From Massalongia carnosa (taxonomy: Eukaryota), in contig OZ287077.1 of assembly GCA_965645245.1 (NCBI GenBank), positions 310,001-374,000 on the forward strand: DNA of 64,000 nucleotides, given 5' to 3'. A model generated the notes under the pieces. The model was not told the origin of the DNA, ran no database searches, and worked only from the letters and a program-made list of their open reading frames with translations. A program made the translations under genes and the position numbers. Shown one piece after another: positions 2,812-62,071 of this stretch. Each line of letters begins with the position of its first letter. Position 1 is the stretch's first letter.

Positions 2812-3045
2812 CCTAGGCGTCCCAGGCCTCCCATGAGATCGAGGCTTATCTGAATAGCTTCAGTTGCTGCCTAATAAACTGGTAAGGCTGATTGCTGATG
2901 GCTTAGTATTGCTATCCGCCTTATCATGACTAAGCATCCGGATTATCAGTCACCCGGTCTTCTTGGGTGAGTCATCTCAGGAGCTAGCGCAGTCCTGTAT
3001 TGCCGCGCTATTACATAATCAGCCTTATACGGCGGCGCTGTAACA

Positions 3046-3590
3046 CCTACAGTCAACACCCTCGCTTTAACACCCCCTTTTCTGAATGCTTTTTGACGTC
3101 GTTGAGCCTGTTTAGCAAGCAGTTCTTGATTGGTGTGTTTCAGAATAACCCTATCAGCGACGGTATTCAACGCAGTTGTTTTAAGCAATTCAACATACGC
3201 GCGAGAAGATGGAGTCATACGGGATATAAGAGCATCGCTGGCCTCCTGAACCCGCTGGACCATTTTGGGGGCGTCGGTGAGGGTTTCTGAACGGGTAGGA
3301 GGTGTAGTAGACCTAGGCAGTTTGCCTAAAACATGCCCTGGACTAAAGGCAATAAGGCCTGCCCCCCGCCATGCACTCATGATGTTGATAGTCGTTATGG
3401 CCTGTTTTCTAGCCACCTGAATAAAGCGTAGGAAATCCAGTTTAGAAACAGTCACAGCCCCGTAACGTGATTGGCTGGAAACCAATCGTTTATAGGCCTT
3501 AGATAAAGGGCCAAAAATACCGACATCCAAAGGCTGCAATAAATGAGTAGAATGAGATGGCAAACAAAGAGGTATAATCCGATGCTTTAC
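3046..3590 (-). pseudogene. pogo/Fot1-like DDE transposase C-terminal fragment
   Basis: PSHSTHLLQPLDVGIFGPL motif; cut at KARVLTVG by the gypsy LTR. Confidence 0.88.
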
Positions 3591-3828
3591 AATTAATTGT
3601 TGAACTATTCTATCTTATTATTGATATTATTTACTTCGTACTTGTATCGTAAATTTATCGTATATTTCATTAGCGTAAGAATCAACGTCGTAAAAGATTC
3701 GTAGTTTTTCGTCGTACGAATAATAACGATAATTAATACAATCGTCACGCAATAAACGATATAAAATATGTTAAATTCTTTAACCGTTACTGTCAGGGTC
3801 CTAGCCTGACATAGGATTGCCTAGCGTT

Positions 3829-4716: not shown

Positions 4717-5175
4717 TACGTCGCGTAACGGGTCGGGTTGGGTCGGGTTTTGACTAGTCGATCCCGACACGCTACCGGGTTAAGGAACCTGTAGGGCTTA
4801 ACCCGGTAGGTTAGGGATCCGTTCCCGTGTTTACCAGTTTGACCCGTTCGACCCGGTCGATTTTTGATATCAATTTAAACATGTTTTCTGGACGTTTTAA
4901 ACACATTAAAGACTCTTAAAATTCCGAATATTAGTCATCAAGACATTTTGATGAGTAAGCAAAATTTTTATCATTTTAAACGTGATATTTTCGTCGAATT
5001 TTCTTGTTTAATTAGAATAAAAAATTGACTAGGTTGAACTGTATAACCCGGAAACCCGGATCAAAAAGCAGGACCCGTCGGGTCGGGTTCGAGAAGGTCT
5101 AACCCGACCCGAAACCCGACCCAAACCCGAGGCGTTGAATAACCCGACGGGTTTCCCAACCCGTTGCTCGGCGTA
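4717..5175. mobile_element. hAT-type MITE, 459 bp
   Basis: TIRs TACGTCGCGTAACGGGT...ACCCGTTGCTCGGCGTA; ACCCG subterminal repeats; 8-bp TSD TATTTATG/CATTTATG. Confidence 0.85.
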
Positions 5176-5221
5176 CATTTATGTAATCTTTTGACAAATT
5201 TTAAGTTCAATATTATATTTA

Positions 5222-6728
5222 GGGAACGGATTACAGGACACCACTTTAGTTAGATAAACACCACCTCCGGTTAGGTAAACACCGCTAGCCCTGGTAGTGT
5301 AGATTCCTCGGCCCCGCCCGCCTCTTCCCCTTATAGGTCTAGCGGTTGAAACTCCCACATTCTACCTGCACCTCATCCTTGCACTCATATTTCACATTTG
5401 ATCTGCAGGCACCCTGCCGCCGCCACGTCGTCATGCCGCTTCGACCTCCCGAAGATAGTCAATCCTTTGCCTCACTAGAAGACCTGTTGCTTAGAGTCAA
5501 TGAGCATGCCGCCCCCGAAGGCTACGCCGTGGTGCTTCTTCGAACCAAGAAAACCAAGCTGGGAGTGAGAAATAAAGCTTGATTAAAATGCGACCGAGGT
5601 AGAAAAGTCAGAGAACCGCAGGGTCAGGATCGTCGGCACACCAGCAGTCGACTAATTGCTTGTCCATTTGCCCTGACAGCCAAAATGGACGACGAGGTGT
5701 GGTTTTTGGAGGTGGTAAATGGGACACACAATCATCCGTCCAGTCTTGCTGGCTCTCATCCTGCCTTGAGAAAAATGGCTCTGACTGGTATAAAGGATGA
5801 CGTTACCAGACAGTTAACAGTACAAACGTCGGCGTCAAAGGTTTTGTCTAGTCGGCGTGTTCCCGATGTGAATACAGATCTCAGTCCTCATGATCCCAAT
5901 GCCGAGATCATTGTGAATCCGATGTTAAAACCTCGGGACATCTACAACTTAAAGGCGCAGATGAGACGTGATTTCTTGGGACCATTGACTCCTATTCAGG
6001 CATTGATTCGTGAGTTTGACGAAAAAGATTGGGTGTACAACTTTCAACAAGACATTTATCAGCAGATTACGCATCTCTTCTTCAGCGAGGGCAGTTCCCA
6101 AACTCTTCTGATAGATAATCATAAAGTTCTCATTATGGATTGCACGTACAAGACCAATCGATACAAAATGCCTCTTCTCGTCATCAGCGGACAAACCGCG
6201 CTACATACTACCTTTTATGTCGCCTTTTGCTTTCTGATCACGGAGACAGCAGAGGATTATATCTGGGCTTTACAGCAATTGAAGGAGGTGTATTCTCGAT
6301 TGGAACTTCCTGATTCAATTATTCTCGTGTCCGACATGGAGAAAGGATTAATGTTGGCATCTTCAATAGTTTTTCCAAATATCAATCATTTGCTATGCAT
6401 CTGGCACATCAATCAGAATGTGTTGACAAAGTGCAAAAAATCTTTCGACAATGAGGAATGGAAGATCTTTTTGTCAGATTGGAAATCAGTGATCTATGCA
6501 GCAACCGAGCCTCAATTTTGGAAGCTATGGGAGCATTTTTCTGCTACCTATATGACTTCTCATGAAGATTGTATTCGATATTTGAAGTCCACCTACATTG
6601 ATAATCATCGCGATCGCTTCGTGGCATGCTACACCAACAAGGTGCTGCATTTTGAGACAACGGTAACGTCGCGAGGGGAAGGCGCAAGTGCAGTATTAAA
6701 ACGTCAATTAGGATCTTCTCGTTTCTGA
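5222..6728 (+). mobile_element. Mutator-like (MULE) element, 3'-truncated, with a transposase pseudogene from ~5433
   Basis: FAR1-like N-terminus (EGYAVV...CDRG...CPF...HNH) and MULE motifs DCTYKTNRYKMPL, LLCIWHIN, TSRGEG; in-frame TGA at 5580. Confidence 0.88.
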
Positions 6729-7221
6729 ATTAAACTTTGACTGTGGGATTTCTGTTTAAAGATAGTATATCTATTCGTCACATGAATTTCGATAAAGATA
6801 ACACTTATTCTGCAAAGGCGGTCGGGAGCATTAGGACGAGGCATGCTTACGTGCATATGTTTTACAGGTTTTGGATGTATCAGGCTACATTAAAGACCGC
6901 ATATATAAGAACGATTTAATAGATAGAAGCAATTTGAAAGATAAGAAGGGTCGAAGAACTAACACAAAGGATGCTTACTTGCATACTTCATTCTCCAATT
7001 AGGTTCTACTAATCATTCTCGTGTTCGACTCGCAGTTCGCTACAGCACATATCAGAACAAACCGGTGAGAAAGGGTCGAAGAACTGACATAAAAGACGCA
7101 TATGTGCATACTGCATACTCCAAGCAGGTTCTACGAATCATTATCGAGTTCGATTTTCTAGCTTTGCAGCTGGCTACAGCAAAGGCAGCACTTATCAGCA
7201 CAGATTGAACTATATAGCTCA

Positions 7222-8691
7222 ATGAATAGTCTCAATGACACAACAACAGCAGAATACTCAATTCAAATCTTACCCTTGAAGAAAATCAAAAAAATGAGAC
7301 TCGATATCGTCAACTCTACAACTTGCTCCGTCTCAACCTCAATCGAGATCGCTCAAACCTATCACATCGTAAATTCTGTCTTCGATTCAAAGAGTCCCAA
7401 TCTTGCCGAATTATATAAGCCATGGAAACGTTGCCTGGCTGTAGTTGATCACTGGGTGCATCTTCTTTATGGTGACCAGATCAAGAGCTACTTTGAGGCC
7501 TACAATATCGCCGCTACAGTTCAGTCTGTAAACATTACAGAAGACAAGAAAAGTGTGGAAACTCTCCTGGAAATTTGTAGTTGGATCACTGATTTCGACA
7601 TCCTTCGTCGCGAACCGGTCCTCGTTATTGGAGGAGGATTGGTGACTGACGTTGTTGGGTTACTATTGAATTTCTTAATATTTCCAATCAAAGAGGATGC
7701 TTATATAGTATATTATATGGCTTACTTTTCTTTGTCTTAGTTTCGCCTGCGCCATTTATCGTAGAACAACACGTTACATCCGCGTGCCAACAACTCTTAT
7801 TGGTCTAATCGACGCCTCAGTCTCAAACCGCGTTGCTGTAAATTGGAATGGTTTGAAAAATCGCCTAGGCGGTTACCACGAACCTCTTCATACCATTATC
7901 GACGCCACGTTTTTGAGAACGCTTCCAGAGGCAGAGGTCAGGAACGGTATTGCTGAAATATTAAAGATTTCCTCGTGCACTCACATTGCTACCTTTGAAA
8001 CACTAGAGCAATATGGCGTGAGCTTAGTCGAGAGGCGTTTTGGACACATCGATGGGGACAACGGTGAGCTGGCTAGTATTGCAGATACTGTGATTCGCCA
8101 AGGTAAGACAATGAGAAACATATATTGATTCCTCCACACTAATCATATATCCTTTACGCAAATGTTTACACCAACTTACTTTTCTCTATCTACTCAGCAA
8201 TCCAGTCCGTCCTCGAAGTTGAAGTTCCCAACTCTCGCGAACAATCCCTAGACCGCGTAATGTATTTCGGTCACACATGGTCCCCAGTCCTTGAACTCGC
8301 CGTCTCACCGCCCCTCCTGCATGGCCATGCTATTTCTGTCGATATGTGTTTTTCTGCAACCCTAGCGCACCATATTGGCTTACTCCCCTCCAATCAGTAC
8401 TACCGCTTCCTTCGTGTGTTTTCTACGCTGGGCCTGGCGCTGGATCATCCTGCATTTACGCTTCAACTGATGAAGAAAGCTACAAATGCAACGATTGCGA
8501 CCAGGGATGGAAGATTGAGGGCACCGGTGCCGACGGGGGGTTTGGGGAGCCATGAGATTTTGCAGATGATGGATGAGGGGATTTTGACAAAGGTATGGGA
8601 AGAGCATAAGAGAGCCATGGAGGGGTGGCCAAGGAAGGGATTAGGATTGGATATGGATATTGCTATAAGACTTTCGCAATTGCCGAATTAG
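7222..8691 (+). CDS. Sugar-phosphate cyclase, DDGS (demethyl-4-deoxygadusol synthase)-like; exons ~7222-7658, 7741-8102, 8198-8691 (start may be the ATG near 7293)
   Basis: GGGLVTDVVG, PTTLIGLIDAS, KNRLGGYH, AEILK, LDRVMYFGHTWSP, LLHGHAISVDM. Two GT-AG introns (7659-7740, 8103-8197) join the three ORF-track pieces in frame. Confidence 0.87.
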
Positions 8692-9274
8692 CCCTTTGGG
8701 CGAACCATTGTCATTGAACAATCATGTACCTCAAAGGTTATAGATAGGACAAAAGAGGGTTGCTTATTTGACCATCATCAAAATAAAACGCTGATTCTTT
8801 TCTTTTATGATAGAGTAGGAACCGTCACTGCTTTGAAAGCTTTCTGGACATAGATAGGTAATGAGCTTGACATTTCTTGGGAGTTTACTTTTTAAATAGA
8901 AAGAACTCGATGATAGAATCTCTTTGATCGATTCTTATTTAATCAACGAGAGTCTACAATAAAATAATCTACTCTTTTTATTGGGAACTAATACCGGGAC
9001 GCCCCTTTTCCCTACCTTGACACCTTGACACCCTCATTCTCTAGGTTAACACCCCCAAGTACAGTCGACTGCAAAAGGTTGGTCGCGACCCTGAATTTGG
9101 GACCACACATCACGCGAAAATGGCAAAATGCCGGCAAAAATCCGAAAAACTACCCTCACCGCCTACATGCCAATGAAGTCGTACTACTGGTCAGTATTGA
9201 AGCGACTTGTAGATTAGTATATGTAGATGCCATTCCCCGTCTTTTTTCCCTCTCTCCTCTGCCATTTTCCCAAA

Positions 9275-10319
9275 ATGCCCCCCCCTCTCAGTGAGACCCT
9301 TCGTGAGACAATCACGCTTCGTTTTGTACGAGGTGACAGCAATAAGACAATTGAATCTGTCACTGGTGTTGGCATCAGACAGATTCAACGAATGAGACGT
9401 AATTGGACTCATTTTGGAGATGTGATTCTACCTCAATTGTCAATTGGACATCGCCCTCGTAAACTCAGTCAATTTCATGAGATTGAACTTCTGAAATATC
9501 TGGAGCAACGTCCGCATGCCTATCTGGACGAAATGTGCTGGTTCATTTGGGACGAATTTCAGATCTCTGCAGATGAGACCACCGTTGGTCGTGCCCTAAA
9601 AAGGCTTGGTTGGAATCGAAAGAAGGTGATCAAACAAGCAGCTCAAAGAAATCAAGGCCTTCGAGATGGATGGATGCAGAGACTCGGAGAATGGACTGCA
9701 GAGCAATTGATCTTTTTGGACGAAAGTGCAGCTTGCGAAAGAACCGGTTATTTCCTATCTCATCTTTCATCCCATCTTCGTCATTTTTCTGACTTTCTGA
9801 CTAGGTGATCGACGATACGGATGGGCTCAGGCAGGCGTCCCTCCAATCATGATTCAGGATTTGAAAAGGTCAAAGAGATGGAGCATTCTTCCTGCATTTA
9901 CCGTCGATGGATATATAGCTTGGGAGGTGCATCAGGGCTCCATAACTGCCGAAATTTTCAACGACTTCGTTCGAAATCAGGTTCTTTCTCAGACGACTGC
10001 CAATGGAGGTCCTAGATCTGTTTTAGTACTAGATAATGCCAGCATTCATTGGAATCAGGAGCTTATTCAGATGTGCGAGACAGCCAACGTCACCTTGGCA
10101 CGACTACCTCCTTATTCTCCATATTTCAATCCAATTGAAACGTCGTTTGCATTGCTAAAGGCATGGATTCGACGGAATGGAGAAATGAGTCTTTCGTACA
10201 CGGAGGAGTATGGGGGATTCGGACAATTTCTTCGGGATGCAGTCAAAGATCTGAGAATGGGAGGCCCGGGAAATTTATTTAGATTGGCTGGCATTCAGTA
10301 TCCCACCATTTCAATCTGA
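9275..10319 (+). CDS. DD34E transposase; exons 9275-9746 and 9805-10319 (in-frame upstream ATG at 9227)
   Basis: HTH-like N-terminus; IFLDESA, LDNASIH...PPYSPYFNPIE with 34 residues between D and E. Intron 9747-9804 restores ERTGDRRYGW. Confidence 0.9.
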
Positions 10320-10405
10320 TTAGATACATAGTATCTAATCCTCATCTTCATATTCGGCATAATCGTATTCTAGACTATGCGTTTCATCTTCCTCAATTGT
10401 ATCTC

Positions 10406-12497
10406 TCACTCCAGATCTACCTCCCCGCCCCCGTCCACCTCCCCATCCTCCATCCCCTTATCCACCCGAGTGACCGCCTGAGTGACCGCCTGAGTGGCCA
10501 TTTGCGATGTCGGTAAATGGCGTTGACGCCGAGGGGGAGGCGGGGGCATTTGCTGAGATATCTGTCGAGACATTTGTCGAGACATTTGCAAAGGCATTTG
10601 CCGAGACATTTCTCTTCCAAATTTACTGACGTCTCGCGCCAGTTGAATCCCGATTCCCGGAGGAATTCCTAGCTCCTGCCAGAACGGCTAATGCTCGATG
10701 CCTTTCAAGGATTGAACGGTCATCAGATCGTACCCACCTTCCATCAATCGATCGCAGGCGTTGGTGAGCACTCCTTTCAAATGAGGCTTCATTTGAACAA
10801 GCCAACTGACATAGTCTTCCAGATCTTCTTCTACTGGACTGCTGCGGGCGACGGAGGGGAGAGGGAGAAATCGACTCACGCTTCGACTGCTTCTGGATGA
10901 TCTCGAATCTCTCCAATCCAACGGCGTTTCCTCAAGGGCTCGTCTCGAGTCAGGTAATGTAGAAGGAGCATACTGAGAAGGATAAAATGCCGGGGGGGGG
11001 AATGCCGAGTGAGGAAATGCCGAGGGGAATGCCGAGGGAAATGTCGAGGGGAATGCCAATGACGAGGGGGGAAATGTCGAGTGGGGGATTTGGTACGAGT
11101 GGTGTTGATACATGGGATGTTGATAAATGGAATGCCCACCTCCAAAGGGCATTTCCTGAGACGAGGTTTCCTGTTTTGGAGATGATGATTCAGTCTTTTT
11201 CTTACCTTTATTCAGGGAGAATAAATTCTCTCTGATCTTCGGTGGAGGTGTTCGAGAATCAACGCCTGAAATTCCATCATCTAGTGCTTTTCCAGGTCAC
11301 GAAATGAGCACTGTTGAGAGGATAATGCTGATTCTTCGTCTCATCATTCCAACAGTACTGTCCGAAATTCCTACATGCGCGTTTTTCACAGAGATGCAGA
11401 CTTTGCAATTCGGACATTCTTTCGGCCGTCATGCCTTGCAACATGGCTCGTTCCTCCATCTCTTTTTGCAGCTTCATGGTCGCGGTTCCCAATTTCTTGG
11501 TGGCGACAGCTGTGGCAGCAGCAATAGGATCATCGGGAGGAATGACGCCATCTTTGGTACGACTGAAGTTGAAAATAAGATCAACCGCGAAGCTTTTCTT
11601 TCGAAGGCTGCTGTCTTCTAAATGAATTAGAACCTCCTCAATGGGCTGCCAGGATTCGATCAACATGAGAGCTGATTTTTCATGCGGTTTGATTCCATTC
11701 CATAACACGGTCGCTTTGATATCGACCAAATGACAAGCATACATTTTGGAATTCGCATACGTCTCGGCTTTCAAACTCATGTCCCCGGTGTAGCTTCTCA
11801 AAAAGAATCTTTTCGACGTAGTTGAATTGACTTCGTATGGAATCACCGTCTCGAAAACGACGTGCTTCTCATACGACATCTTCACATTTAGTAGATATTT
11901 GATTACCGTGGGAGGCAGTGGCGAAGGGGATAAACGGGAGGGTTCCTTTCTTCTTGGTTTTCTAGACTTCTTACTGACAATCGAGTTACTAGGCACATTG
12001 AGATCTTCGACATCATCTTCGGCATCATCTTCGGAATCATCTTCGGCATCATCTTCGGCATCTACAGCTTTCATCGCGTTCTCCTTTCTCCACTGACCCT
12101 GCCACCTCTGCTTCTCGTCTTCATCCGTCCAGTCGTCGGAGGAATCCTCCGTAATGACAAGGGGACTATAATAATTCGATTCGAAAGTCTTTGACTGCTG
12201 AGGCTGGACCTTTGACTTGGAAGGGGCCTTTGGCTTGGGAGGGACCTTTGGCTTGGGAGGGGCCTTTGGCTTGAGGGGGGCCTTTGGCTTGAAGGGGGGC
12301 TTTGACTTGAGGGGAGGCTTTGGCTTGGGAGGGGCCGGCGTCAATTCCGGCGAGGCTTCATCGATGCCGGCGGCGACAATGGCTCTGGCTCTCGGCCCTC
12401 CCAAAGTCAGTTTGATTCTCTTACCTTTGAAAGGCTCTTTTCCAGCCGGGGGGGGGCCGGAATTTGATCTTTTTGCTCTCGGTTCACAAAGTTTCAT
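10406..12497 (-). pseudogene. Second gene of the transposon: ~700-aa unknown protein (PK repeats, acidic tract, Cys/His motif, SAM-like C-terminus) with one frameshift and one premature stop
   Basis: ORFs 11277-12557, 10688-11152 and 10406-10609 join into one frame with an A-run frameshift at ~11290 and read-through of TAG at 10688-10690. Confidence 0.72.
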
Positions 12498-13680
12498 ATC
12501 TGAGGTAAAAAATGGGGAATGGCAGAGGGGGGAGGGAAAAAAGACGGGGAATGGCATCTACATATACTAATCTACAAATCGCTTCGATACTGACCAGTAG
12601 TACGACTTCATTGGCATGTAGGCGGTGAGGGTAGTTTTCAGATTTTTGCCGGCATTTTGCCATTTTCGCGTAAATATTTGATGTGTGGTCCCAAATTCAG
12701 GGTCGCGACCAACCTTTTGCAGTCGACTGTAAGCTAACCCGATTGGATAGTTTATCCGTTCCGGAGCTGGAACTTCGAAAATTTCTGCACTCATACCTGC
12801 ATGCATTTCATAGGGCGTCCTACAATCGTGATGCTTTTACAATCGGAAAGAGCAACGAAAGGCTGATAACTCTACTCAACGGGAGTTATCAGAGTTCGAA
12901 CATGTCGAGGAGATGTTTAATGGGCCTCCGAGGCGGGGGCGGAGGCGGGGGCGGGGGCGGAGGCGGAGGCGGAGGCGGAACCGAGGTCGAGGACCGGGGC
13001 GAGGGCGAGGACGGGGCAGAGAAAGGAATCTTGAGCCGTCACAAGATGAAGAGGTGGTCTCCGGTGAAGCTATCCAATCGATTGAAGTAGATGAAGTAGA
13101 TTTGTTTCAGGCCTTTCGAATGTAAATACGAAATGAAGCTCAATTCATTGAAAAAGGTCATCGAGGAAGCATCAAACGACCGTCTAAAACACACCTGAAT
13201 TTCATCAAATCGAGAATGTTTTCTTCAGTTGTTTCTGCTTCCGAGGGAAATTTATACTCAATTGAGTAAGCTTATTATGTTCAACTTCTACAACAGATTA
13301 GATTAGATCAGATCTAGTCTAACCTTATCGGTTACTTAAGACCTTTAACGGTGTCTTAAGCAACCTAGGCTCGGATAAACTATTATCACTTCGCTTAGTA
13401 GAGGGTGACCATATAAAAGGAGAAGACTGCTTCATAGCAACTTTTCATCTTATACATCAGGGTTATACACATTGTCATTTATTACATAGCCATATTGTCA
13501 TAATCATATACCTATTTCAACAAGTTATGAGCCCGGAAGGGTGCTATAGATCACACAGGAATCGAAGCAGACCTATCCGCTGCATTCAATGCTAAAACAG
13601 CTAAGCATCGATCTCTCTCATCAAAAGTTCTATAAACGAGACATACTAAATCTTCATGTGCACGAGAGACAGAGACGATT

Positions 13681-14210
13681 GCCCGCAGTGCCCATAGTCA
13701 AACTACAAAGTCCTGCTGGCCTACGTGCCCCATAGGCAAACTACAAAGTCTTGCTAGCCTACGTGCCCCATAGGTAATCTAGTCCTGCTGGCCTACGTGC
13801 CCCATAGGCAAACTACAAAGTCCTGCTGGCCTACGTTGCCCCATATGCGAAATACTCAAAAGACCTTTTGCCAGATTACATGCATCAGAGGCACTCTTCA
13901 AAGACCTTGAACACTCGACAGGCTTCTTGCCAGAAGGTTCTAAGACAATCCAGATGATGACGTTGACCCAGAGGCAGATTTCAGTCTGACTTTTGCTGCA
14001 TCACCATTCAGATGATGACGTTGACCCAGAGGCAGATTTCAGTCTTGCTGCATCATCATTCACCTTACTTTGACCCAAGAACAGATCACTTCAAAAAATC
14101 TGATTCTTGCTGCATCGTCATTTGACTGACGTTGACCCAGAGGCAGATCTCAGTCTGCCTTTTGTTGCATCGCCACTCAACAAACTTTGACCCAGAGGCA
14201 GACCATCTGA
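13681..14210 (+). repeat. Two tandem arrays in the copia leader (~38-bp and ~58-bp units)
   Basis: GGCCTACGTGCCCCATAGGCAAACTACAAAGTCCTGCT ~4 copies; repeats containing TTGACCCAGAGGCAGA ~5 copies. Confidence 0.85.
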
Positions 14211-15614: not shown

Positions 15615-18488
15615 CAAACTTAGACCGAGACACCTGGCTCCTTGACACCGCCGCAGACATGCACGTATGTAATCACAGATCATCTTTTATTTATTATATA
15701 TTACGTCCAACAGGTCTGGCAGGATCTACTTCAGAAGGAATGTCTCCATGGAGGGGAGTTATCGAGAGAACGTTGGTACTACAGGACGACTCACCCTCGT
15801 CAGTGTTAATCTTACACAACGTACTACTCATTCCACAGTGTCCAGTGAACCTTATCAGCCTGGCACTACTCAATCGTCATGACATCTACAATGAAAATCT
15901 GAACAGGACCCTATTCCTCCAATCCAGTGGAAGGGTCATAGGGTATGTCCCAAGAGTCAACACCAACTTCTTAGTGAAGATCTTGGATACCCCAGAAGTG
16001 GCTGTACGTCTCACACAGATAGACGATCAAACTTTTCAATGGCCCAAGACCGCTGTTTATCATACATCTAACAGAGCGGACTTGACAACATGGCATGCAC
16101 GTCTTGGTCATCTGAACATAACTACTTGTCGCACTTATCTAAAGCGACTCGATGTACCTTACTCGGACAATGTCAGCAAGGATTGGTACTGTCCATCCTG
16201 TGAACTCGGAAAGGTTACAAAGATATACAACAGAACACCTCAGGAGAGAGCTACAGGCATATTTCAAAAGGTTCATTCAGACCTGGTCGGACCCATCAAA
16301 CCGGCGGGACTTCTCGAGGAAATATACTTCTTCACCTTCACCTGTGACGCAAGCAGATACACACATGTGTATACCGGCATCAAGAAGAGCGATTGGTTCG
16401 ATCATCTATCATCATATTATAGCCTGGCTTAGAACAGGACAGGAAAGAGCAAACCAATGAGCGTCTTTCGCACCGACTATGGCACCGAACTCCGAAGTCT
16501 GAAATCGGACGACTGGTTTCTGAAGGAAGGGATAACATTTGAACCCTCCGCACCACATTCACAGGAACAGAACGGAGTGTCCGAAAGAACAGGCAGGACC
16601 ATCATGGACATGACCAGGTGTACTATCATCGAAGGAGGCATTCCGGACTATTTATGGACAGAGGTAGTTCTAGCTATGATTCATACCAAGAACGTCAGAC
16701 CTACAAACGCTTTACCTGGAAAGAGTCCCTTTGAAATTGATGAATCAAAGCCACCTTCTTTAGATCATCTGAGAGTTTTAGGATCTACTGTATATGTTCT
16801 CCTTCATAGAGAAGAACGAGTAGGAGCAAATAGCAAATCGGCCAAATTCTCACCTCGGGCCCAGCGTGGCATTCTATGTGGATATGACGGCTGCACCATT
16901 TATCGGGTTTTTGTTGGAAAAGCACTACAGGGTCATCAAGGTCAAAGATCTGCGCATTCATGAAGTCGCCATCTCCAAAGACCAGACCAACGTTCCTACG
17001 TATGATGCCATCATGGCACCCGATACAAACATCCTATCAGAACCAGTTGTCATTTCACCTCCCACTTCAACTCCTAAACGTGGACGAGGTAGACTCAGAA
17101 AAAATATTCATGTGAAGCACATATTGTCTCTGCTCTCCGACAAAGCTTTAGTTGAACCAGACCATGTCCATACATCTGAAGACAGACATGCAGAGGACCC
17201 ACTTGTACTTTTAGCCAGAACTCTAGAGAAAGAAGGATCTTCAGGACTGCAGGACTATGATGCACTGTCCCATCTCGACGTTGCTGAACCACAGACATAC
17301 AATCAAGCCATGAAATGTTCTCATTCAGACAATTGGAGTCACTCCATCGACAAGGAACACAACAATCTCCTCGTCTGTGGTATGAAAGTTCAACTCATCA
17401 AGCTGGGTCTGTCGAAACTTCATGCAGATTATAGCATTTTTGCCTCTCCAGCAGGCATCAAAGGTCCCATTTTCACCTCCTTCGTGGATGACCTGAACAT
17501 CATAGGACCCAAGGGGTCATCAATGATCTCTGAGGTCAAGAGACAACTTAACATCGCTTTCAAAATGGTGGACATGGGCCCAATCAGTCACTATTTGGGT
17601 CTAAAAGTGGAACGGAATCGCGTAAACAAAACACTTAAACTATCTCAGCCTACATACATTACAAAGGTCCTTGAGAAGTTTCACATGCAGAACGCAAAAT
17701 CCACCACCACCCCTATGAAAGAAGGCAGTCTATTCAGAAATGAATATCAGGCCTCAGAATCAGACATTAAGCAATATCAAACCATAGTAGGGTCCATCAT
17801 GTTTGCCATGATAGAGACACGGCTAGATATAGCCTTTGCAACCTTAGTGGTTAGCCGACACGCCAAAGACCCAGGCAAAACACATATGGAAGCAGCCAAA
17901 CACATACTCCGGTACCTCAGTGCCACCAAAGACAGAGGTATCACCTTTGGTGGAGGAGATATGTCTGTACAGAGCTATTCCGACTCTGACTGGGCCGGAG
18001 ACAGGGAAGACCGCAAGTCCACCTCCGGATACGTCTTTATGTTAAAAAAGGGACCAATCAGTTGTTCCAGAAGACAACAAACCGTCGCACTATCATCCAC
18101 AGAAGCAGAATATATGGTACTCACCTTGGCTGCTAAGGAGACCATATGGATACGCTTATTGATGGCTGAGCTCGGCCTGATGCAGGATGATGCTTCTCCG
18201 GCAGTGAATGTACTTGAAAGGGAAGGCGCTATAGCACTGGCCAACAATCCCGTCTTACATTCAAGGACTAAGCACTTCGATATTCAGCACCACTTCATTC
18301 GAAATGAAGTCACAGAGGGACGGATAGACCTTACATATGTCCCAACTGAACACATGGTAGCGGACGGGCTGACAAAGCCGCTTACCCACGTCAAGTTCTT
18401 CTCTTTTATCAGACAACTACATATGGACTCGGCTACTGAGCTCAATAGTCATCCACAACAGATTCGACCACCTACATACCTCATCTGA
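15566..18488 (+). pseudogene. pol: Copia Pol (PR-IN-RT-RH) with a stop at 16430, a frameshift at ~16915 and loss of the RT N-terminus near 17375
   Basis: WLLDTAADMH, WHARLGH, VHSDLVGP, RTDYGTE, QNGVSER, FVDDL, YSDSDWAG, RTKHFDI, ADGLTKPL. Confidence 0.92.
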
Positions 18489-19450
18489 CGGACAAGTACT
18501 GATAGAACTTGAGGGAGGGTGTTGAATGTTCAACTTCTACCAGCACAACAGATTAGATTAGATCAGATCCAGTCTAACCGTATCAGTTACTTAAGACCTT
18601 TAGCGGTGTCTTAAGCAACCTAGGCTTGGATAAACTATTATCACTTCGCTTAGTAGAGGGTGACCATATAAAAGGAGAAGACTGCTTCATAGCAACTCTT
18701 CATCTTATACATCAGGGTCATACACATTGTCATTTATTACATAGCCATATAGTCATAATTATATATCTATTTCAACAGTGGTGTTAACATAGAGAATGGG
18801 GGTGTCAAGGTAGTGAAAAGGGGTCCCGGTATTAGTCCCCTTTTTCTTTGTTAATACAATATCAAACAAATATTAAGAAATTAACTTTTTAAAGCGACCT
18901 TAACTCCAGTACTCGTCAGTTAGTCAAATTATTGAAAACGCACCAGCTTGCTGGGGGCTAGTGAAGTTGTCACCGTGACGGACGGCACCAGGCGTGTAAG
19001 TGGGATAGGGCCGGACGCTAGCAGGGAGGTGAAAAACTCTTCACCTCCTCTCTCTTTCCTCATCAACACTCATCAAAAATCGTATTTCGCTGTTTCTCCC
19101 ACCCGCCCTCTCCTACACAGTCTGTCGCTTAGATAGATAGAGTATGTCTTGACCCCAGGGTTCGCATCTACAGCGTCCATGGACCCCGTAGCCTACCCGT
19201 TGCGGCTCCGTACCCGGCGCGGATGGCGCACGAACGGTGTCATGCCACACCCTAGGGTGAGTACTTTGCCCAAACAGTAGAATAGCAATAAACACAAGGT
19301 GGCTGCGTTTCACTAGAGAAGTGTCACTCGATTAGCAAGTGTTGCACTTAGTGAATGGCTGCCTACCGAGTACGCACAAAAGGTGATGGGATAAGATAAA
19401 ATAGATATTTAGCTAGAGATGATTTCTATCATAAACAACCATCCTTAATA

Positions 19451-22400
19451 ACGTATTTTGTCACCGGATGAACTTTATCACCGGATGAACACCCCTCCAG
19501 AAATGGTAACTACGACCTCAAACTAGAATATCTCGATGAACAATGAATATAAAGCTATAAAAATCATATGAAAGGGTAAATAGCATTGTACGAACACGAT
19601 ACAGCTATTTTCTACTCCTTAAACTTAGAAGGAATCACTACAGTGCGCCCGCTACGAGCTACTCTCGTTTCGGGCAGTTTCGGCTCTATAGGAGGTGGAT
19701 CCTCCAGTTTTCGCTTTCTAGCTATAGTAGCTTGCTTCTTTTGATCCTTTTCTGACTGCTCTTCAAGCCTAAGCTGCTTGTTAAGCTCCACGGGGACCGA
19801 GGTGACCTCCGGGGACCGAGATTCAGTGGACCGGCTGACTCCTTCTGAAAAGGGTCGCCGAAAGGTCTCCAATGTGACTGCTATATAATGAATTAGATAG
19901 CTCACATATAATCCATACCTTCAATGACAATCATGCTACTATACCTATAAAGTGAATTTTACTATTCATAGTGTTGTTGTTGCAGACGATGTGGATGGTA
20001 GCTGGCTAGCGCGAATGTTTTTTTGATTGAGGCTATAAAGGGAAGGAGCTTTTGGAGAGGGAACCGTTTGGGAAGGAGCCTTTTAACCATGTTTCGCCAG
20101 CAATTCATCAATATCTGCAAATCAATCGGAAGAAGATGCCGGGGATGGAGGGATAATATCATCATTCTCATTCAGAGGGAGTGGAGGATCGGGGGTAGGC
20201 TGAGTTGCTATATATTGCAGGTCATCGTCGTCAGATACGATGATAGCATCTCCGGAATCTATACCGAATATTAGCCGCGCTACATCGATCGATTTGCTGA
20301 TATCGTGGGTTTTTTATCATCAATCATACCCTTGTCTTCAACGCCTACCCGCAATTCATCCTCATGCCTTCCTCTCCTCCCTTCTTCTTCAATAGAGTCC
20401 TTACGTTTAGCACGTCGCTGCTTAGCTAACATTTTCTTGATTTATGAAAATCAATAGATTGATGTGCGGCCGCATGCAGCAAATCAACACCCCCGCGACG
20501 AAATCTATCCCCAGTATTATTGTCAACTGCCTTCTCGATCTCCTCTTCCGGCTCAGATTCTTGTCTTTGTTAAGCATTTCCCCCCTGATCCGCCTCCTCA
20601 TCTTGCTCTTCTGTAGTCTTCCTGTTATTGTAATAGAAGCTCTGCTGGCATAGTAAAAAGCTCACTTTTGAAACGATTGATATTTCTATCTACCTATCTA
20701 TGGACCGTGTTTATATAGATAGAAAAACATGCCGAAAACCGTTCTCCCTATGACTCACCTTCCTGCTTCCTAGAAATCTAAGATTGGTGATTGACTCATA
20801 TCCAATTTATGACTCGATGGGAATGTTCATAGAAGTTTTGCGGTGCTTCTCGAGGTCGTTATGTGTTGCCTAATGTTCTTACCAACGCACTAATCCCAAT
20901 GCGGTACTATGTGACTCTGAACACTTTACTAGGCATCAGCCGGGTGACTTTGCACATTACAACACCTGTGAGCTGCTCTCCGAAACATCTCAGCGAAACT
21001 TATGGTGGGGTCGAAAAGCATTTTCCACGAGACCACCAAAGGCGGGCCATCGAAAAACCAGTGGGGATGAATGAGGGAGATAGGTATGAGGATAACATCA
21101 ATGACGCAATGATACAACCAGCATCTGCATGGGAGACCGTATCGTGAAGGCAAATCACAATCATACATACAATCCTCACCGGTTGGTTCGATTAATGCAG
21201 TCCCTTCAACTCCAAAAGAAACCTGTTGATTGAAATCTTCGGCTAAAATTTTAGCTGCATCCAACTCTCTAGATATGAGGTCAATAGAATGATGAGTTAT
21301 TAAACCTATAAGGTCTTTGAACGCACTTCTATCCATTAGCGTGCTGTTGATTCGTTGATGATTGGTTGATATTTCGTAGTCAACCTGAACCCTTTGCACT
21401 GTTTCGCATATTTTCCGCACCGAGCCTTTAATAGTTATATGCCTATTTGTCACATTCTTTACCAACGGATGCAAACCTTCCACCCTTTGTGTGCTATGTG
21501 CACGTAAATTAGGGAACTTTTTGGTGTATGCGGAAACAAACTGAAACCCCTGACGTTGATAATAGCTGGTAAAATACTCCTGGAAATAGGAGTGAGTTAG
21601 CCCTTATTAACGTTTTTTGATGGCTTCATACCTTTTCTGAAGCATGAAGCTTCAACATCAACGCGTTTCTTTTCTCATCCAGCTGTTCAACGGTAGGATT
21701 TTTGATCCACTCCCATATCAATTCATGCAGCTCTTTTCGTACTTCTAAAGGATATGAACCCGCCCTGATCAGGCGTTTCTTGATTGCCTCCGCTGCGTGC
21801 CACGTGTATAATTGCAACACACGATCAGGGCCGGTTTCGTGTATTGATTGGGCGACTTGCCATGCAACGGTCATTGCTGCATCCGGGTTTATTTCCTTAG
21901 CCCGTTTTTTATGCATCGCTGCAGTCAGTCCAGCGGCGAAGTCTCCGAGGATGACCCTAGAACCAGGACATGTATCATGAAAAAAGATATCTTTAATACA
22001 ATCAAATAGAAACGTAAAGCACTCAGCCGATTTAGAAGTTATATAACAATAGGCCGCGGGGAAAGTCTGATTTGTGTTGGTGATGCCAACCAACACCGAT
22101 AGAGGTAAGTTCAACTGATTTGTATTGAACGTAGCATCCGTTTCTATCAAAAATCCACTGACGAATCGTCTAGTCAGTCGGATCTGTTCAGCGTTACAGA
22201 AAAAGAAATATTCAACAACACGTCTTCGGGGAGTATTTTTTTCAACGAGATATTTCTCCAAAGTCCGTGCATGAAACCCTTCTTCTTCTAGAAATCCAAG
22301 TGCATAGGTCAACTCTTCTTCAGGTGTATGTTTGCCCTGGAATCGAGCCAGGTTGTAATAGTCCTTCGAAAGGCGCAGGCCAGTCATTCCCAAAACGCGA

Positions 22401-22892
22401 GATGCTTGACCGTATCTAGTTGATGCATCACGGAGACTTTTTGCTTGATCTAGGGCAGTTGCTCGATCGAGGTCTTGGCTACGATGCTCTTTGAAACCGA
22501 AGGGGCCTGTAGCCATCTCGTGATTGTGATCAGGATTGGTGATGATTAATCTCCACGATTCGTCTTTATTTTGCTTCAGTCTTAGTCGATATTTGCACTC
22601 GTTGAACGAGACCTTCGTGTTTTTTCGTACGCGGTCCTTCTCTCTAGCTTTCTAGTGTTTCTTTCTCTTTTGTGATGACGGGTGCAATCTAGTATAACGA
22701 GATGATTCTTCTTATCATTAGTCTCTGTGACCAATGCAAAGCCTTGAGTAAAGGCATAATTCTGAAGGCGGGTTTTTCCCTCCTCCCAGGAGATAAAGAT
22801 TTCACTCTCACTTGGAGGAAGACGATGAGACGACGGTAAACTCGCTATAGCCCTTTGCAAACGTGCATCCAGGGACGTTGATGTGAGGGTCA
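19451..22892 (-). mobile_element. Mutator-like element, fragmented transposase pseudogene
   Basis: YAFTQGFALV...CTRH, ETDATFNTNQLNLPL, QLYTWHAAE, EGLHP, CDLPSRYGLPCRC; C-terminal RSGRTVVIPSKF; multiple frameshifts and stops. Confidence 0.85.
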
Positions 22893-22927: not shown

Positions 22928-24244
22928 CACGCGGGTGACAAAATAAATTGCAACGTGTAAGCGAATTTACCCCCCCTTTTTTATTCAAATTTTCATCTCA
23001 TCATCAACCATCATCTGCATAGCTGATAAAATTCATCTAAATTACATGAGATCAATAACCAGTCATCGCCCCCTTTGCATCTTTTACCTCTTTCAATCTT
23101 TTGGGCATGGATAACACCCTTTCATTGATAAATTCCTGACTGACTCGAGCCCATCCCTCCCTAATCAGCTGCTCCAAACTTGCATCGTCCCAATGAGGAA
23201 ATTTACGAACATGCTGCTTTGCGGGCTGCCAGCAATTTTCAATGGAGGCTAGATCAGTAGATGAAGCACAATTGAAATAGTGCTCTAAATCGTGATCTAA
23301 CTTCCACTTTTTGACCGCGTTTCGTGTCTTGCCCGTGCCATGACCAGAGTCTCCATCTTCTTCAAGTACGAAGTCATCTCCACGCTCCAACCAGGGCTTG
23401 ACAACGGGATCAAGAATAGCGTCAATATACACCTGATGAGTCATTTTTCCATTGCTATTGCTGGGCACATCGTAGAAGTAGATATCCGACTTGAAATTGT
23501 AACCAACTGCTGCCCAGCAGTGCTTTCTTTTACGATCTTTCTCAGGTGGTGCATCACGATGCTGAATACAATCCCAACGATATCTTGTTCCGGGCTTACG
23601 AATGATTCGTAACTGTCCTTCAGGCCCGTAGCCAAAATGAATCTCATCGCTGAATCGTACGCGATGCCAGTCTTCGGACCGAGGATATTTATTTAACATA
23701 ACTGTAGCAAATTCTTCTCTTCTTTCTTCTGATGCCATTGCCAGCCACCCTTTGACACAGGCTAGACATTTGTGATAATTCAAGGCAGCTGTAAGAGTTC
23801 TCTTCATTGTACGTCCCATCACGTCGGCCCCAATCTCCTGTGCTAAAGCATCCCATGTGTAGCGTTTTCCTTCCAATTGTAGATCTTGATCCTGCAGAAT
23901 GTGATCTGCCTCCTTCAGCTGATCATCACTAATATTTCGCTTTCGACCCCGAGTCTCAACGAGAGAAGAATTGTGACGTGTGCGAGAAGAAGCTCCGCTT
24001 TTGATGATGTTATAGCCCGCGCGCTCGGCCACGCCAAATTCCTAAAAAATGGCCCGTGGATCGAATGGAATTGCATGTGAGATGAGAAAGTGATAAGCTC
24101 CTTGAACTTTGGCCTTTGTGGGAGTATCATAATGAGGCTTTTTGGGTCGAGACATTGATGATGAGATAAAAAGTTGAAAAAAGGAGGGTGTTTTGATGGG
24201 GCATTCAGGGGTAAATTCGCTTACACGATTTTGTCACCCGCGTG
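22928..24244 (-). mobile_element. Tc1-like DD38E transposon without a TA TSD
   Basis: Inner IR CGTGTAAGCGAATTTACCCC and outer IR CACGCGGGTGACAAAAT; GGGCG on both flanks. Confidence 0.8.
23052..24157 (-). pseudogene. Tc1-like transposase (EEDGDSGHG type), N-terminal frameshift near 24035
   Basis: RFSDEIHF, WAAVG, LEEDGDSGHG...SSTDLASIENCW, SMPKRL...GAMTGY. Confidence 0.85.
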
Positions 24245-26028: not shown

Positions 26029-27843
26029 TCAGTTCTGAGGCCGGTCCACTCCTTTTTCAAGGTGCCAACGACGCAGAAATCCGTCCAATGACCCAGCAGA
26101 TAGTCCTGGGAACGCTTTCGTCTTCCGCCGAAATGCCTTCTCGATCTCATACAACGATTTGCCCTTAGTCTCCGGCATAAAGACAAAACAGACAATGGCT
26201 GTAAGAAGTGTGCATCCACCAAATAGAAAATAAGCCCCATAGCTGCTCTTTGCCAACAGAATCGGAGTCGTAAGGGCTACTAAAAAATTTGTCAACCAAT
26301 TACTCCCGTGTGCGAGATTGGTAGCTGATGCCCGCGTTCGTTGCGGTTGACTTTCCGCCACGTAAATCCTTATCCCGACTGCCCAAGAAATACAGAATAT
26401 CGTCACGAAGATGTAGATCGAGATGATAACTACCCAACGACCTGCCCCGGAATTGCTGTGAACAGCATTTCCCGCGTAAAGCCCACCTATCAGAAACATT
26501 GTAACACTGAGTCCCAGACCACCGTAAATAGTACTATGCCGACGACCCCATTTGTCGGAAAAGAGGAGAGCGGGAATAGTCACGGTGAAAATAACGATTG
26601 CGGAAACCCCAGACGCGAGGAAGGAAGATTCCGAGGAGGCGAGACCGGCCTGTTTGAAAAGAAGCGGTGCGTACTTGAGATTGTTAGTAGGGTTGTTTCT
26701 GTGCAAATCATCTACGGGGAGGAAGTTTAACGAGCTTACATAAAGCACGCCATCGATACCGCTGAGCTGTTGCATACCAAGCAAGAAAACTGCCAGGCCA
26801 GTTCGCAAGCGTACATCCCGGGCGAAGACATCAAAGAAGCTATGTTTGGTGGCCAAGTCTGGGTTGCGTGTGGGTGAGGCATCTTGTTGGCGAGGAGAAT
26901 CAGTAGAGTCGACGAAGCTTTGGACTCGAACTATGGCTGCTTGTATTTCAATCTCAGCCTTCTCACGTTCTGCATGGCCAACGCCTAAGACGTCCCACGC
27001 GGCGGAAGCTTCGGCATGCCGACCACGAAGGATCAGCCAACGTGGAGAGGGAACAAGCCAAAGGGCTGATGCTATAACGAACAATATCGAAAAACAAGTG
27101 AGGATGATAAATGGGATGCGCCATGCGAGAGAGGACTCCATATTAGCGGTTCCATAACAGGTAAAAAACCCAATCATGAGACCGAAAGTGTTTAATAATT
27201 GAGGGCCTGCCGTCAGAGGTCCTCTTTGGTTAGGTGGTGAGATCTCGCAGATATACCTATTTGTTGTCAGCCATATTTATCCTGAATCTCCCATCGTTTG
27301 CTGGGGTTGCTGTGTCGCTTGGCATTCGAATATACCCCAAGAGTTGCGAAGCAACATAGCAACCGACAGCAGCAGATGATAGGATGGGGATTAACTTGCA
27401 CGACCAAGGTGCCTAGATATAGTCCTTCACCGATGCCTTCAATAACTCTGCCAACGATAAACATGGCAATCGTGACTGCTCCCGCTTCGAGAGCCGCTCC
27501 AAGGCCAAAAATCAGAGCACCGATAGCGATATTCTTTGGCCGCCCAAGTACATCAGCTACTTTTCCGGCGAAAAAGGAGGATACTGCAGCGGGAATCAAG
27601 ATTGAGGAGACAATCAATCCATGGACGGTAGCGGATTGTGAGCCAAAATCTGAGACATAGCTCTTCATAACGGTAACAGAGCCAATAATACCGGTGTCCA
27701 TCCTAGATATTACGTGTTATTAACTCTCCATATCTCGCAGGCGTATATAAGGGTTCATACCCGAAAAGAAAGCCGCCAAAAGAGCAAAGCATGCTGGCGA
27801 GGACATATCTTGGGGGACAGCGAATATGATTAGACAGAAACAT
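26029..27843 (-). CDS. MFS sugar porter; exons 27843-27761, 27702-27400, 27256-26740, 26673-26029
   Basis: GGFLFGMDTG, DVLGR, YICEISPPNQRG, WR...PSPRWL, QQLSGIDGVLYYAP, DKWGRR, PETKGKSL. Splice sites checked in frame. Confidence 0.92.
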
Positions 27844-61417: not shown

Positions 61418-62071
61418 GATGGTGATGCACCAGGTGAATAGGCAGGTCGAACGTAGTGTCACGGTGCGAGGTCAGGTAGGAATTCAGGTGGTGCAAACGT
61501 GTTACTTGATTGTCTAGCTAGGTGGACAAGACGTTCGACAAGGAGAAAAGAAACAGAAAATCCAACGTGGGCGAGTATAAGACTCTGGCGAACGGAACTA
61601 GTCCCAATCCAGCCGTTGATCCAATTTCCCCAAGTCCCTAGCATGAAACTATCGCCATGACACTATTGATAGTCGGAACACTTACCTTTGAACCGGATTA
61701 AGCTTAGTTCCTTTCGGATCGGCTAACCGGCTAGTGCTTCGTTCAAGCAGCTAAGGTTGATTCAATGAACTAACTGGCAGGTGCCCAGTCACTCCATGAC
61801 AGATATGGCGTCAATTCAGTGTTACGAGGCCGATTACCACTTATGGGGGTCAAAGAAGCACGAAGCATGGTGAAATTATGAGGTGGAAGATAGGGGGTTG
61901 ATGAGTTGAAAACGCGAAATCACGAAAATCACGGGTTGGGCCGCAGACTTTCGGCACGGGACTGTAGACAGATCTCAATAGAATATACCTTCATGCAATC
62001 TTCTCTCCTCCCTACCTGATATACCATTTAACTCAGTAACTACTTTTTTGCTCAGTAGGACTAATTGCGTT

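Follow-up and report, generated by a model that had tools for sequence, protein, structure and literature searches.

A Tc1/IS630-like fungal transposon with a convergent second gene and long terminal inverted repeats

Background

Tc1/mariner elements are the textbook minimal transposon, with one self-sufficient protein and two ends; they owe their use as tools for gene transfer to this simplicity. According to the available text of PMC7325037, typical Tc1 members are about 1.3 kb long with a single transposase ORF, and Minos also has long inverted ends. In the ciliate TBE and Tec elements, according to the same text, the DD34E transposase is accompanied by further ORFs, among them one for a zinc-finger protein, and Tec elements have very long terminal inverted repeats (TIRs) (PMC7325037).

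Maize MuDR has two convergent genes and TIRs of ~215 bp which contain promoters; poor termination between the genes results in antisense transcripts (available text of PMC3440606). Harbinger elements encode a Myb-like partner which binds the TIRs as well as the transposase, and which imports the latter. This partner evolves faster than the transposase, and the phylogenies of the two are congruent (available text of PMC9179366).

The window analysed here is a 64,000-nt stretch of contig OZ287077.1 from Massalongia carnosa. In it lies a cut-and-paste transposon of the Tc1/IS630-like (DD34E) kind, one of multiple copies in a fungus that is probably lichen-associated. That it is a transposon is established by the duplicated TA, by a paralogous site found empty and by its many copies. 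The family is probably ancestrally two-gene, with the genes convergent from long terminal inverted repeats and with the second gene, ORF2, encoding an accessory factor.

Ends and target site

The element is 3668 bp long (9062-12729), and TA is found on either side. An initial annotation, made from the sequence, had described such a TA-flanked unit with TIRs of ~210 bp; both are present, and the ends measure about 205 nt on the left (9062..9266, plus strand) and about 212 nt on the right (12518..12729, minus strand), where 8 bp are inserted in comparison with the left. The left end opens with CAGTCGACTG at 9062, and the reverse complement closes the element at 12729. The first 53 nt of the inverted ends are a perfect match; after the 8-bp indel, identity is 94-97% up to about 9266/12518. 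The 29-nt terminus has only two sites in the window, both at the element ends, while none of 100 shuffles gave two matches. The left terminus, CAGTCGACTGCAAAA, matches the terminus CAGTCAATTGCAAAA of a distantly related element, L001. No IR/DR organisation was found, as the ends contain no internal direct repeats of the terminus (at <=3 mismatches in 14 nt).

The TA target-site duplications (9060..9061 and 12730..12731, unstranded) are identified from the sequence and from an empty site in run X1. Three contigs of this run carry the empty site with a single TA, ...CCCCCAAG TA AGCTAACC (joint from 9058 to 12729). L001 likewise has a TA target-site duplication and terminal inverted repeats, as is characteristic of Tc1-like elements.

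Two further details of the ends had been reported. The 10-bp terminal palindrome is present in the window copy but is not conserved in L001, and is rejected as a meaningful family feature. Similarly, in-frame ATGs for a shared leader, MPFPVFFPS.LCH, are found in both ends, but the leader is not conserved and is out of frame in L001; homologues P0021 and P0015 begin at downstream ATGs. It is therefore rejected as coding, and the identical peptide in both genes follows trivially from the ends being repeats of each other.

Transposase gene

The transposase is encoded on the plus strand. Exon 1 (9275..9746) encodes the DNA-binding HTH region at the N-terminus, as well as the first D of the catalytic triad (DES); exon 2 (9805..10319) contains the DDE_3 catalytic core with DD34E spacing and ends in a TGA stop (10317-10319). 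The start, MPPPLSET, matches that of homologue P0021. The spliced product has 328 aa and is open in the window copy. Between the exons lies a 58-bp GT..AG intron (9747..9804, plus strand) at the same protein position as the L001 intron; the intronless relative P0021 aligns straight over it. The initial annotation does not mention this intron.

Pfam finds DDE_3 (PF13358) on exon 2 (E 4.6e-25, 88.6 bits, cut-off 28.6) and HTH_33 in the N-terminus (26.2 bits, cut-off 25); HTH_32 is below its cut-off. By count, the second D (LDNAS) and the E (NPIE) are separated by 34 residues. In 54 relatives, column D234 (P0021 numbering) is nearly invariant and E269 is invariant. The gene had been called a DD34E transposase, and these features bear this out. 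The transposase has no MULE domain (Mutator/MuDR); Pfam gives DDE_3. The window also contains a second DDE_3 gene at 23055-24041, which is unrelated to the element transposase by BLASTP.

ORF2 gene and copy number

ORF2 (10335..12497, minus strand) encodes about 721 aa when intact; in the window copy only a pseudogene remains, split into three colinear pieces. A large convergent gene on this strand had been predicted correctly, but the 426-aa ORF is the first piece only of the broken gene. ORF2 begins with MKLCEP at 12497. Its stop occupies 10335-10337; P0004-type copies have it at 10320-10322, which leaves a gap of 0-15 nt to the transposase stop. No other ORF2-like gene was found in the window.

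Three lesions on the minus strand account for the loss of ORF2. The first (11289..11290) is a 2-bp deletion relative to the majority copies of runs X1, X2 and X3; the frameshift gives HFVTW followed by KSTR and a stop, where the majority copies read HFVTWNKALDD. The second (10688..10690) is an in-frame TAG in place of CAG in the majority copies, giving GIEH-stop-PFWQ instead of GIEHQTFWQ (majority-copy differences 10690 A>G and 10687 G>T). The third (10416..10417) is a 1-bp deletion relative to the majority copies and shifts the frame in the C-terminal tail. The majority copies are intact at all three positions. In the window copy, the transposase gene is open and ORF2 is dead; if ORF2 is needed, this copy would rely on intact copies in trans.

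The depth of the element is roughly 21-24x that of its flank in public assemblies and is equal across both genes; these ratios use summed contig depths and are rough copy numbers only. In run X2, six element contigs have depths of 2844-3318 (transposase contigs 3177, 3262 and 3318; ORF2 contigs 3150, 2970 and 2844), and a mismatch-free flank contig of 2376 nt has a depth of 135.6. Depth is equal over the transposase and ORF2 in three runs, and a 2511-nt contig of run X1 spans both genes. The two genes travel together at equal copy number.

Recurrence of the two-gene layout

The locus search used the closer subset of ORF2 relatives (alignment A3) as query; the broader alignment (A2) is too diverged for this purpose. 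Searching with ORF2 relatives only, all five loci retrieved carry a convergent transposase, 50-54% identical to that of the window, together with TA flanks, a perfect 231-nt inverted end, the CAGTCAATTGCAAAA terminus and an intron in the corresponding position. All five represent a single insertion site and so count as one independent lineage; in it, ORF2 homologues lie tail-to-tail with this transposase clade inside long TIRs, which is the arrangement that the initial annotation proposed to look for by BLAST.

L001 is 3782 bp long and also has two genes. Its transposase is ~52% and its ORF2 ~25% identical to those of the window element, and the layout is shared. ORF2 starts 21 nt inside the end and the transposase 10 nt inside, so that in both elements each TIR runs up to the start codon of an inward-facing gene, as first described for the window copy. 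Between its flanks, the interior of L001 occurs in either orientation in the assemblies.

Two lineages are thus verified at the DNA level, while three further transposase/ORF2 pairs rest on equal-sized contigs: P0021/P0128 (4066 nt), P0025/P0147 (10484 nt) and P0035/P0197 (50441 nt). By chance, 0.29 such pairs are expected (Poisson P about 0.003), and these three appear to share contigs.

Nine of the 20 long ORF2-like clusters examined lie on contigs of 3.3-4.6 kb, which is the size of the element; among the 20, no ORF2 relative was seen outside a repeat-like context. Searching viral contigs with A3 gave no relatives, and the A2 profile gave only two hits in a word-indexed protein collection. 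Many transposase relatives are found on contigs of 1.1-3 kb, too short to reveal the presence of ORF2.

Comparing the divergence of the two genes had also been proposed. Transposase identity is correlated with ORF2 bit score (Spearman 0.88; five elements, ten pairs), and across the compared elements ORF2 identity is 22-27% and transposase identity 39-62%. On these sequences, ORF2 seems to diverge in step with the transposase, and much faster. Together with its multi-copy state in TE-like contexts only, its depth equal to that of the transposase and the recurrence of the convergent layout in L001, this supports the suggestion that ORF2 is a dedicated, lineage-wide partner of the transposase clade; neither a single-copy host gene nor a one-off capture, either of which would have told against it, was seen among the loci and clusters examined.

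No description of a two-gene fungal Tc1-like family was found in the literature searched (papers, as distinct from Repbase/Dfam); on this literature the family is possibly undescribed, as the initial annotation had suggested.

ORF2 protein family

ORF2 has 151 representative database hits at E<=1e-3, 60 of them at E<=1e-10. Pfam gives nothing above noise, and no Myb/SANT, for ORF2 and 22 of 22 long relatives; against PDB sequences, ORF2 has no match below E 0.18. In the 22 long members, C, C, C, H, W, PP and SSP columns are invariant at about 20% identity. Judged from sequence, ORF2 is a conserved, unannotated protein family of its own.

A fold predicted from a deep alignment has three domains with pLDDT above 90; an earlier fold from a 12-row alignment (mean pLDDT 36) was set aside. 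The predicted parts are a beta-grasp domain, a CCCH knuckle (invariant C-x4-C...C...H) and a SAM/HhH-like domain, with a basic NLS-like N-terminus and an acidic tail. Interaction modules dominate the predicted structure, with long disordered linkers and no enzyme fold.

By fold, the middle domain comes closest to PB1 (best match 4mjs_A, Z 7.1, rmsd 3.1, 85/88 residues aligned; no sequence-profile hit) and the C-terminal domain to SAM, RAD51 N-terminal and NusA HhH domains (Z 6.3-5.0, with the best SAM and RAD51 matches at 6.3-5.3; no Pfam hit); these matches are middling, with Z below 8, a level which can arise from common folds. Atlas gives weak leads only, of which a SAM-type lead scored 0.76. 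Foldseek finds no PDB match at E<=1e-3; weak rows at E of about 4e-3 are superantigen beta-grasp domains, taken as fold-level likeness only.

Comparison with described elements

The window element shares with the Tc1 family (Tc1, Minos, impala) the DDE_3 core, DD34E spacing, N-terminal HTH, TA duplication and termini starting with CAGT. It differs in its length of 3.7 kb and in a conserved second gene, encoding about 720 aa, on the opposite strand. A single ORF and a length of ~1.3-2.4 kb are typical of Tc1-like elements, though not strictly defining; at 3668 and 3782 bp, with two genes each, the window element and L001 both depart from this.

As in the published description of MuDR, the element has two convergent genes, of which one encodes a transposase and the other a protein whose function is unknown, and each of them adjoins one TIR. 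MuDR has a MULE transposase of an unrelated superfamily and a 9-bp target duplication, whereas the window element has DDE_3 and TA; the likeness is one of gene layout only.

PIF/Harbinger elements, so far as the available text describes them, also combine a transposase with a separately encoded, faster-evolving, non-catalytic partner, and ORF2 appears to co-diverge in the same way. However, the transposase superfamily and the target duplication are different: the window transposase is DDE_3, and the Harbinger partner is Myb/SANT, while ORF2 has no Pfam match.

TBE and Tec elements belong to the same broad superfamily and have DD34E and extra ORFs. In the available account, they differ in having three ORFs, one of which in Tec is a site-specific recombinase, and in residing in ciliate germlines.

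Proposed mechanism and alternatives

Within the element, in both families, each start codon has nothing but the inverted end upstream of it; each end may therefore supply the promoter and 5'UTR of the gene adjoining it. Such a promoter-in-TIR plan, suggested by geometry, would resemble that of maize MuDR. End promoter activity is demonstrated for MuDR (available text of PMC3440606), whereas for the window element we infer it. Since the stop codons are 0-15 nt apart, the mRNAs of the two genes would necessarily overlap at their 3' ends.

The modelled structure suggests that the ORF2 protein is an accessory factor without catalytic activity, one which oligomerises and binds nucleic acid or chromatin. 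By analogy with the Harbinger Myb-like protein, it would assist the transposase in reaching the ends of the element or in pairing them, or would regulate the transposase.

A more specific two-component system is conceivable, and is put forward tentatively: the transposase would depend on ORF2 (PB1-like, CCCH and SAM/HhH-like), ORF2 would pair or target the ends, the duplicated end promoter would drive both genes, and the 3' overlap would yield self-limiting antisense RNA. Tc1/mariner transposases are classically self-sufficient, so an essential ORF2 would be unusual.

A fast-evolving second gene kept across deep divergence suggests added end recognition, targeting or self-regulation. ORF2 defines a new protein family without annotation, and the element would be a fungal parallel to MuDR and Harbinger, arisen in a different superfamily.

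It is rather unlikely that ORF2 is instead a transposon-borne regulator or anti-host factor outside the transposition machinery, modulating silencing, chromatin state or copy number by analogy with the anti-silencing VANC-type proteins of plant Mutator elements. Its interaction modules and disordered linkers, in place of a catalytic fold, would fit such a role; its rapid divergence relative to the transposase fits an arms race, and the abutting stop codons force the convergent transcripts to overlap. On the other hand, the GIG motif, which we take to be HhH-like, and the basic N-terminus suit DNA binding equally, and the Harbinger Myb-like cofactor is likewise fast-evolving (available text of PMC9179366).

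An accessory factor is also far better placed than passenger cargo, that is, a host gene that an ancestral Tc1-like element took up a single time and that is of no service to it, which is improbable. The window copy does tolerate a dead ORF2 while its transposase gene is still open, and cargo-carrying Tc1/mariner-type elements exist in fungi. However, long open ORF2 genes persist where the transposases are only 39-62% identical, with Cys/His and SSP motifs kept invariant and with the position and start-codon geometry relative to the ends conserved. Furthermore, the majority copies carry none of the three lesions that break the window ORF2, and in the 20 ORF2-like clusters examined no relative was seen outside a repeat-like context.

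Least likely is a composite of unrelated units bracketed by an inverted duplication, or an assembly artefact. The two orientations of the L001 interior show that inverted ends of such length and perfection can mislead an assembly or recombine, but the boundaries are shared and, like the TA duplication and the empty site, they fit a single unit; depth is the same over both genes in the three runs, and an independent lineage has the same architecture.

Element structure and inverted ends

There is good support for a family of Tc1-like transposons in which a second gene, conserved and convergent with the transposase gene, codes for a new family of proteins. The copy in the window spans 3668 bp and carries a transposase gene on the + strand and the second gene, ORF2, on the - strand; its ORF2 is dead. 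The initial annotation located the element exactly: it starts at 9062 with CAGTCGACTGCAAAAGG and ends at 12729 with the reverse complement of this start, and TA adjoins both ends in the window sequence. The inverted ends are perfect over the first 53 nt, followed by an 8-bp indel and then 94-97% identity, with inner limits at about 9266 (left) and 12518 (right). The 29-nt terminus does not occur in the 64-kb window beyond the element ends; two matches to it were found in 0 of 100 shuffles.

Two features of the ends first put forward as distinctive do not characterise the family. Among Tc1-like elements, long inverted ends are nothing out of the ordinary: Minos, a member of this group, is also described with them (PMC7325037). 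The 10-bp terminal palindrome is not conserved; it is absent from the distant related element at metagenome locus L001, where the corresponding sequence reads CAGTCAATTG.

Transposase gene

The transposase gene starts at 9275 (MPPPLSET...), contains a 58-bp GT..AG intron (9747-9804) and stops with TGA at 10317-10319. P0021, the closest full-length relative among the database proteins, begins with the same MPPPLSET and aligns unbroken across the intron position; the identity is 53% in exon 1 and 62% in exon 2. Pfam matches HTH_33 in exon 1 and DDE_3 in exon 2, and by direct count 34 residues separate the second D from the E. The spliced protein of 328 aa is open in the window copy. A search with exon 2 returned 103 relatives, about 70 of them nameless or bearing just the JGI label 'transposase'. 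The taxa are read from the named rows alone, which are hypothetical proteins or transposases from groups that include Dothideomycetes, Agaricales and Tilletia.

The N-termini of two database proteins, P0023 and P0024, look like that of the window transposase altered by numerous substitutions (P>S/L, G>R/E/D, D>N and V>I). Every one of these is a C>T or G>A transition, which suggests RIP-like mutation of the transposase family in another deposited genome.

ORF2 in the window

The second gene is present on the - strand and convergent, as initially annotated; the 426-aa ORF assigned to it is only the first piece of a longer gene. Three database proteins (P0002, P0004 and P0008) are 95-99% identical to this ORF and continue beyond the window stop as HFVTWNKALDDGISGV..., reading GIEHQTFWQ where the window reads GIEH*PFWQ. 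The ORF2-family HMM matches three colinear - strand pieces (11280-12557, 10691-11296 and 10409-10687). Contigs assembled from the public sequencing runs X1, X2 and X3 differ from the window at exactly these points: by TA inserted behind 11289, by A>G at 10690 together with G>T at 10687, and by C inserted behind 10416. In the window copy, ORF2 has therefore lost 2 bp and 1 bp to two deletions and gained a nonsense codon between them; at all three positions the majority copies are intact.

Intact ORF2 starts at ATG 12497 on the - strand (MKLCEP...), which is confirmed by the N-terminus MKLRGPRSKR... of P0015 from the close subfamily B. Its stop codon occupies 10335-10337; in P0004-type copies the stop is found at 10320-10322. 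The product has about 721-726 aa, and the gene ends 0-15 nt from the transposase stop, so the two genes abut tail to tail. At 10317-10322, the transposase TGA (+) directly adjoins the P0004-type ORF2 stop (TTA on +, TAA on -).

Since the stop codons abut, the 3' ends of the two transcripts would overlap; where they are directly adjacent, as in P0004-type copies, each gene's 3'UTR must run antisense through the other gene. In the element families of the window and of L001, the inverted end is the sole element-internal DNA upstream of either start codon; for this reason, any element-borne promoter for either gene must lie in the inverted end. A TAGTATA(T/C) motif that may be there by chance occurs in the ends of both families (window 9215-9222, L001 5195-5202), 60 nt upstream of the start codon in the window and 125 nt in L001. 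The leader MPFPVFFPS.LCH, initially proposed as common to both genes, follows automatically from the end repeat. As a coding sequence it was rejected: in L001 the ATG inside the end shares its frame with neither gene, and P0021 and P0015 start at downstream ATGs.

Copy number and mobility

The element is a mobile multi-copy unit carrying both genes. In X2, a 2376-nt contig representing the left flank with zero mismatches has a depth of 135.6; element contigs have depths of 3177, 3262 and 3318 (transposase) and 3150, 2970 and 2844 (ORF2), which as rough values are about 21-24 times the flank and equal over both genes. An X1 contig of 2511 nt covers 9223-11730 and bridges the two. Three X1 contigs join 9058 to 12729 as ...CCCCCAAG TA AGCTAACC, an element-free site with a single TA. 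Since the flanks too are of high depth, these sites probably belong to paralogues of a repeat that the element has entered. At least 12 different Mb-scale contigs carry ORF2-like ORFs from the two close subfamilies.

The flanks (8874-9059 and 12732-13229) are themselves repeated, with high depth and several element-free variant contigs. As the DNA on both sides is repeated, the element sits inside another repeat. The best run with the window's element is a lichen metagenome. Near-identical copies occur in X1, X2, X3 and X6, whose labels are lichen metagenome and three organisms with different codes; X6 has the copies on contigs of depth 2-3 only. This may reflect a single fungus sampled several times or movement between taxa. 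One X2 contig skips 172 bp (9630-9801) at a depth of 1097, about one third of element depth. Lost with it are the last part of transposase exon 1, where the first catalytic D is encoded, and the greater part of the intron; the contig represents a deletion-derivative subfamily.

Occurrence in other lineages

Searching metagenome contigs with an alignment of ORF2 relatives only (A3) recovered five loci, L001-L005, which are a single insertion site in five assemblies and count as one independent lineage. All five have an ORF2-like gene (671 aa; L001 5320-7335) followed by a convergent transposase, which is 50-54% identical to that of the window and has its intron at the same protein position. The L001 element (5070-8851, 3782 bp) has TA on both sides and perfect 231-nt inverted ends with terminus CAGTCAATTGCAAAA. 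Its start codons lie 21 nt (ORF2) and 10 nt (transposase) inside the ends, compared with about 20 and 8 nt in the window. L001 (5070-8851) has flanks identical to those of L003 (2530-6311), L004 and L005, with the element interior reversed; L001 and L002 have one orientation and L003-L005 the opposite. This reflects either recombination between the perfect 231-nt ends or an orientation beyond the resolution of short-read assembly.

Three further transposase/ORF2 lineages have indirect support from ENA contigs, with pairing judged by equal contig size: P0021 and P0128 (4066 nt), P0025 and P0147 (10484 nt), and P0035 and P0197 (50441 nt). Between 102 transposase and 39 ORF2-like contig sizes there are 3 exact matches, against about 0.29 expected (Poisson P about 0.003). 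Across five elements, transposase identity and ORF2 bit score correlate (Spearman 0.88 over 10 non-independent pairs, some compared over exon 2 only). ORF2, at 22-27% identity, is far more diverged than the transposase (39-62%).

ORF2 protein family

Among 1.84 billion representatives, an ORF2 profile had 151 matches at E<=1e-3 (60 at E<=1e-10), about 18 of them proteins of 590-806 aa. No Pfam family was found in 20 scanned ORF2-like proteins (P0005 and P0127 included) or in 22 aligned members, and a PDB sequence search with ORF2 gave nothing below E 0.18. The 22 long members, at about 20% identity, have the same succession of features. A basic, RKRRSST-like N-terminus leads into a middle domain; then come C-x4-C...C...H with W (invariant), PP and SSP (the latter likewise invariant), followed by a helical C-terminal domain that closes with LGI..GIG..LA and by an acidic tail. 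We take the LGI..GIG..LA end to resemble a helix-hairpin-helix motif. One member is a hypothetical protein on a 3407-nt contig of a metagenome-assembled genome labelled Brigantiaea leucoxantha. For 9 of 20 long ORF2-like clusters examined, the longest contig is 3.3-4.6 kb, about one element.

The predicted fold of P0005 (subfamily B; 149-row alignment, mean pLDDT 70.5, 246 residues at >=90) has three confident domains with disordered linkers between them and no enzyme-like domain. Residues ~78-200 form a beta-grasp domain, whose top match is PB1 domain 4mjs_A (Z 7.1, rmsd 3.1 over 85 aligned residues). The domain at ~423-500 has five helices; its matches are SAM domains (Z 6.3) and, at Z 5.1-6.3, NusA AR2 and the N-terminal domains with which RAD51 and RAD51C bind DNA. 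All these Z values are in a range that common folds can produce. Residues ~216-313, a long helix and a hairpin bearing the Cys/His motif, have no structural match listed. Foldseek with this model returned nothing at E<=1e-3. We read ORF2 as a putative nuclear, oligomerising accessory protein that binds nucleic acid or chromatin; it may aid the transposase in finding or pairing the long ends, or regulate it.

Comparison with known elements

The element has every defining Tc1-like feature tested; it departs from the typical single-ORF form of about 1.3 kb (PMC7325037). Multi-gene DNA transposons are already known in other groups. In MuDR, mudrA and mudrB are transcribed towards each other from promoters and start sites within TIRs of about 215 bp (PMC3440606); the present element likewise has convergent genes next to long ends, for which a promoter role is inferred. 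In PIF/Harbinger, the transposase is imported by a less conserved Myb-like protein that also binds the TIRs (PMC9179366). The ciliate DD34E elements TBE and Tec have three ORFs (PMC7325037). A survey of fungal cut-and-paste elements relies on transposase domains to assign Tc1/Mariner, and its account of this assignment is silent on any second gene (PMC5751038). The literature searches turned up no Tc1-like element with two genes in fungi; one may be catalogued in Repbase/Dfam.

Surrounding sequence

No other ORF2-like gene is present in the 64 kb. A second DDE_3 Tc1-like transposase ORF (23055-24041, -) is unrelated by BLASTP to the one studied. The window consists almost wholly of transposable elements: MULEs (5583-6728 and 21629-22651), a Copia-type RT (16824-18488) between repeats 13290-13522 and 18545-18777, a piggyBac-like DDE_Tnp_1_7 (32770-34734) and chromodomain Gypsy ORFs (36707-40798, 42165-47324, 49044-53925 and 56295-61471). 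Pfam supports the Gypsy assignment over 36707-40795, 42168-45101 and 56298-60314, and 49044-53925 is assigned by repeat similarity only. There are also a sugar-transporter fragment (26032-27276) and short tandem arrays of 33-bp and about 38-bp units (2656-2820 and 13671-13841).
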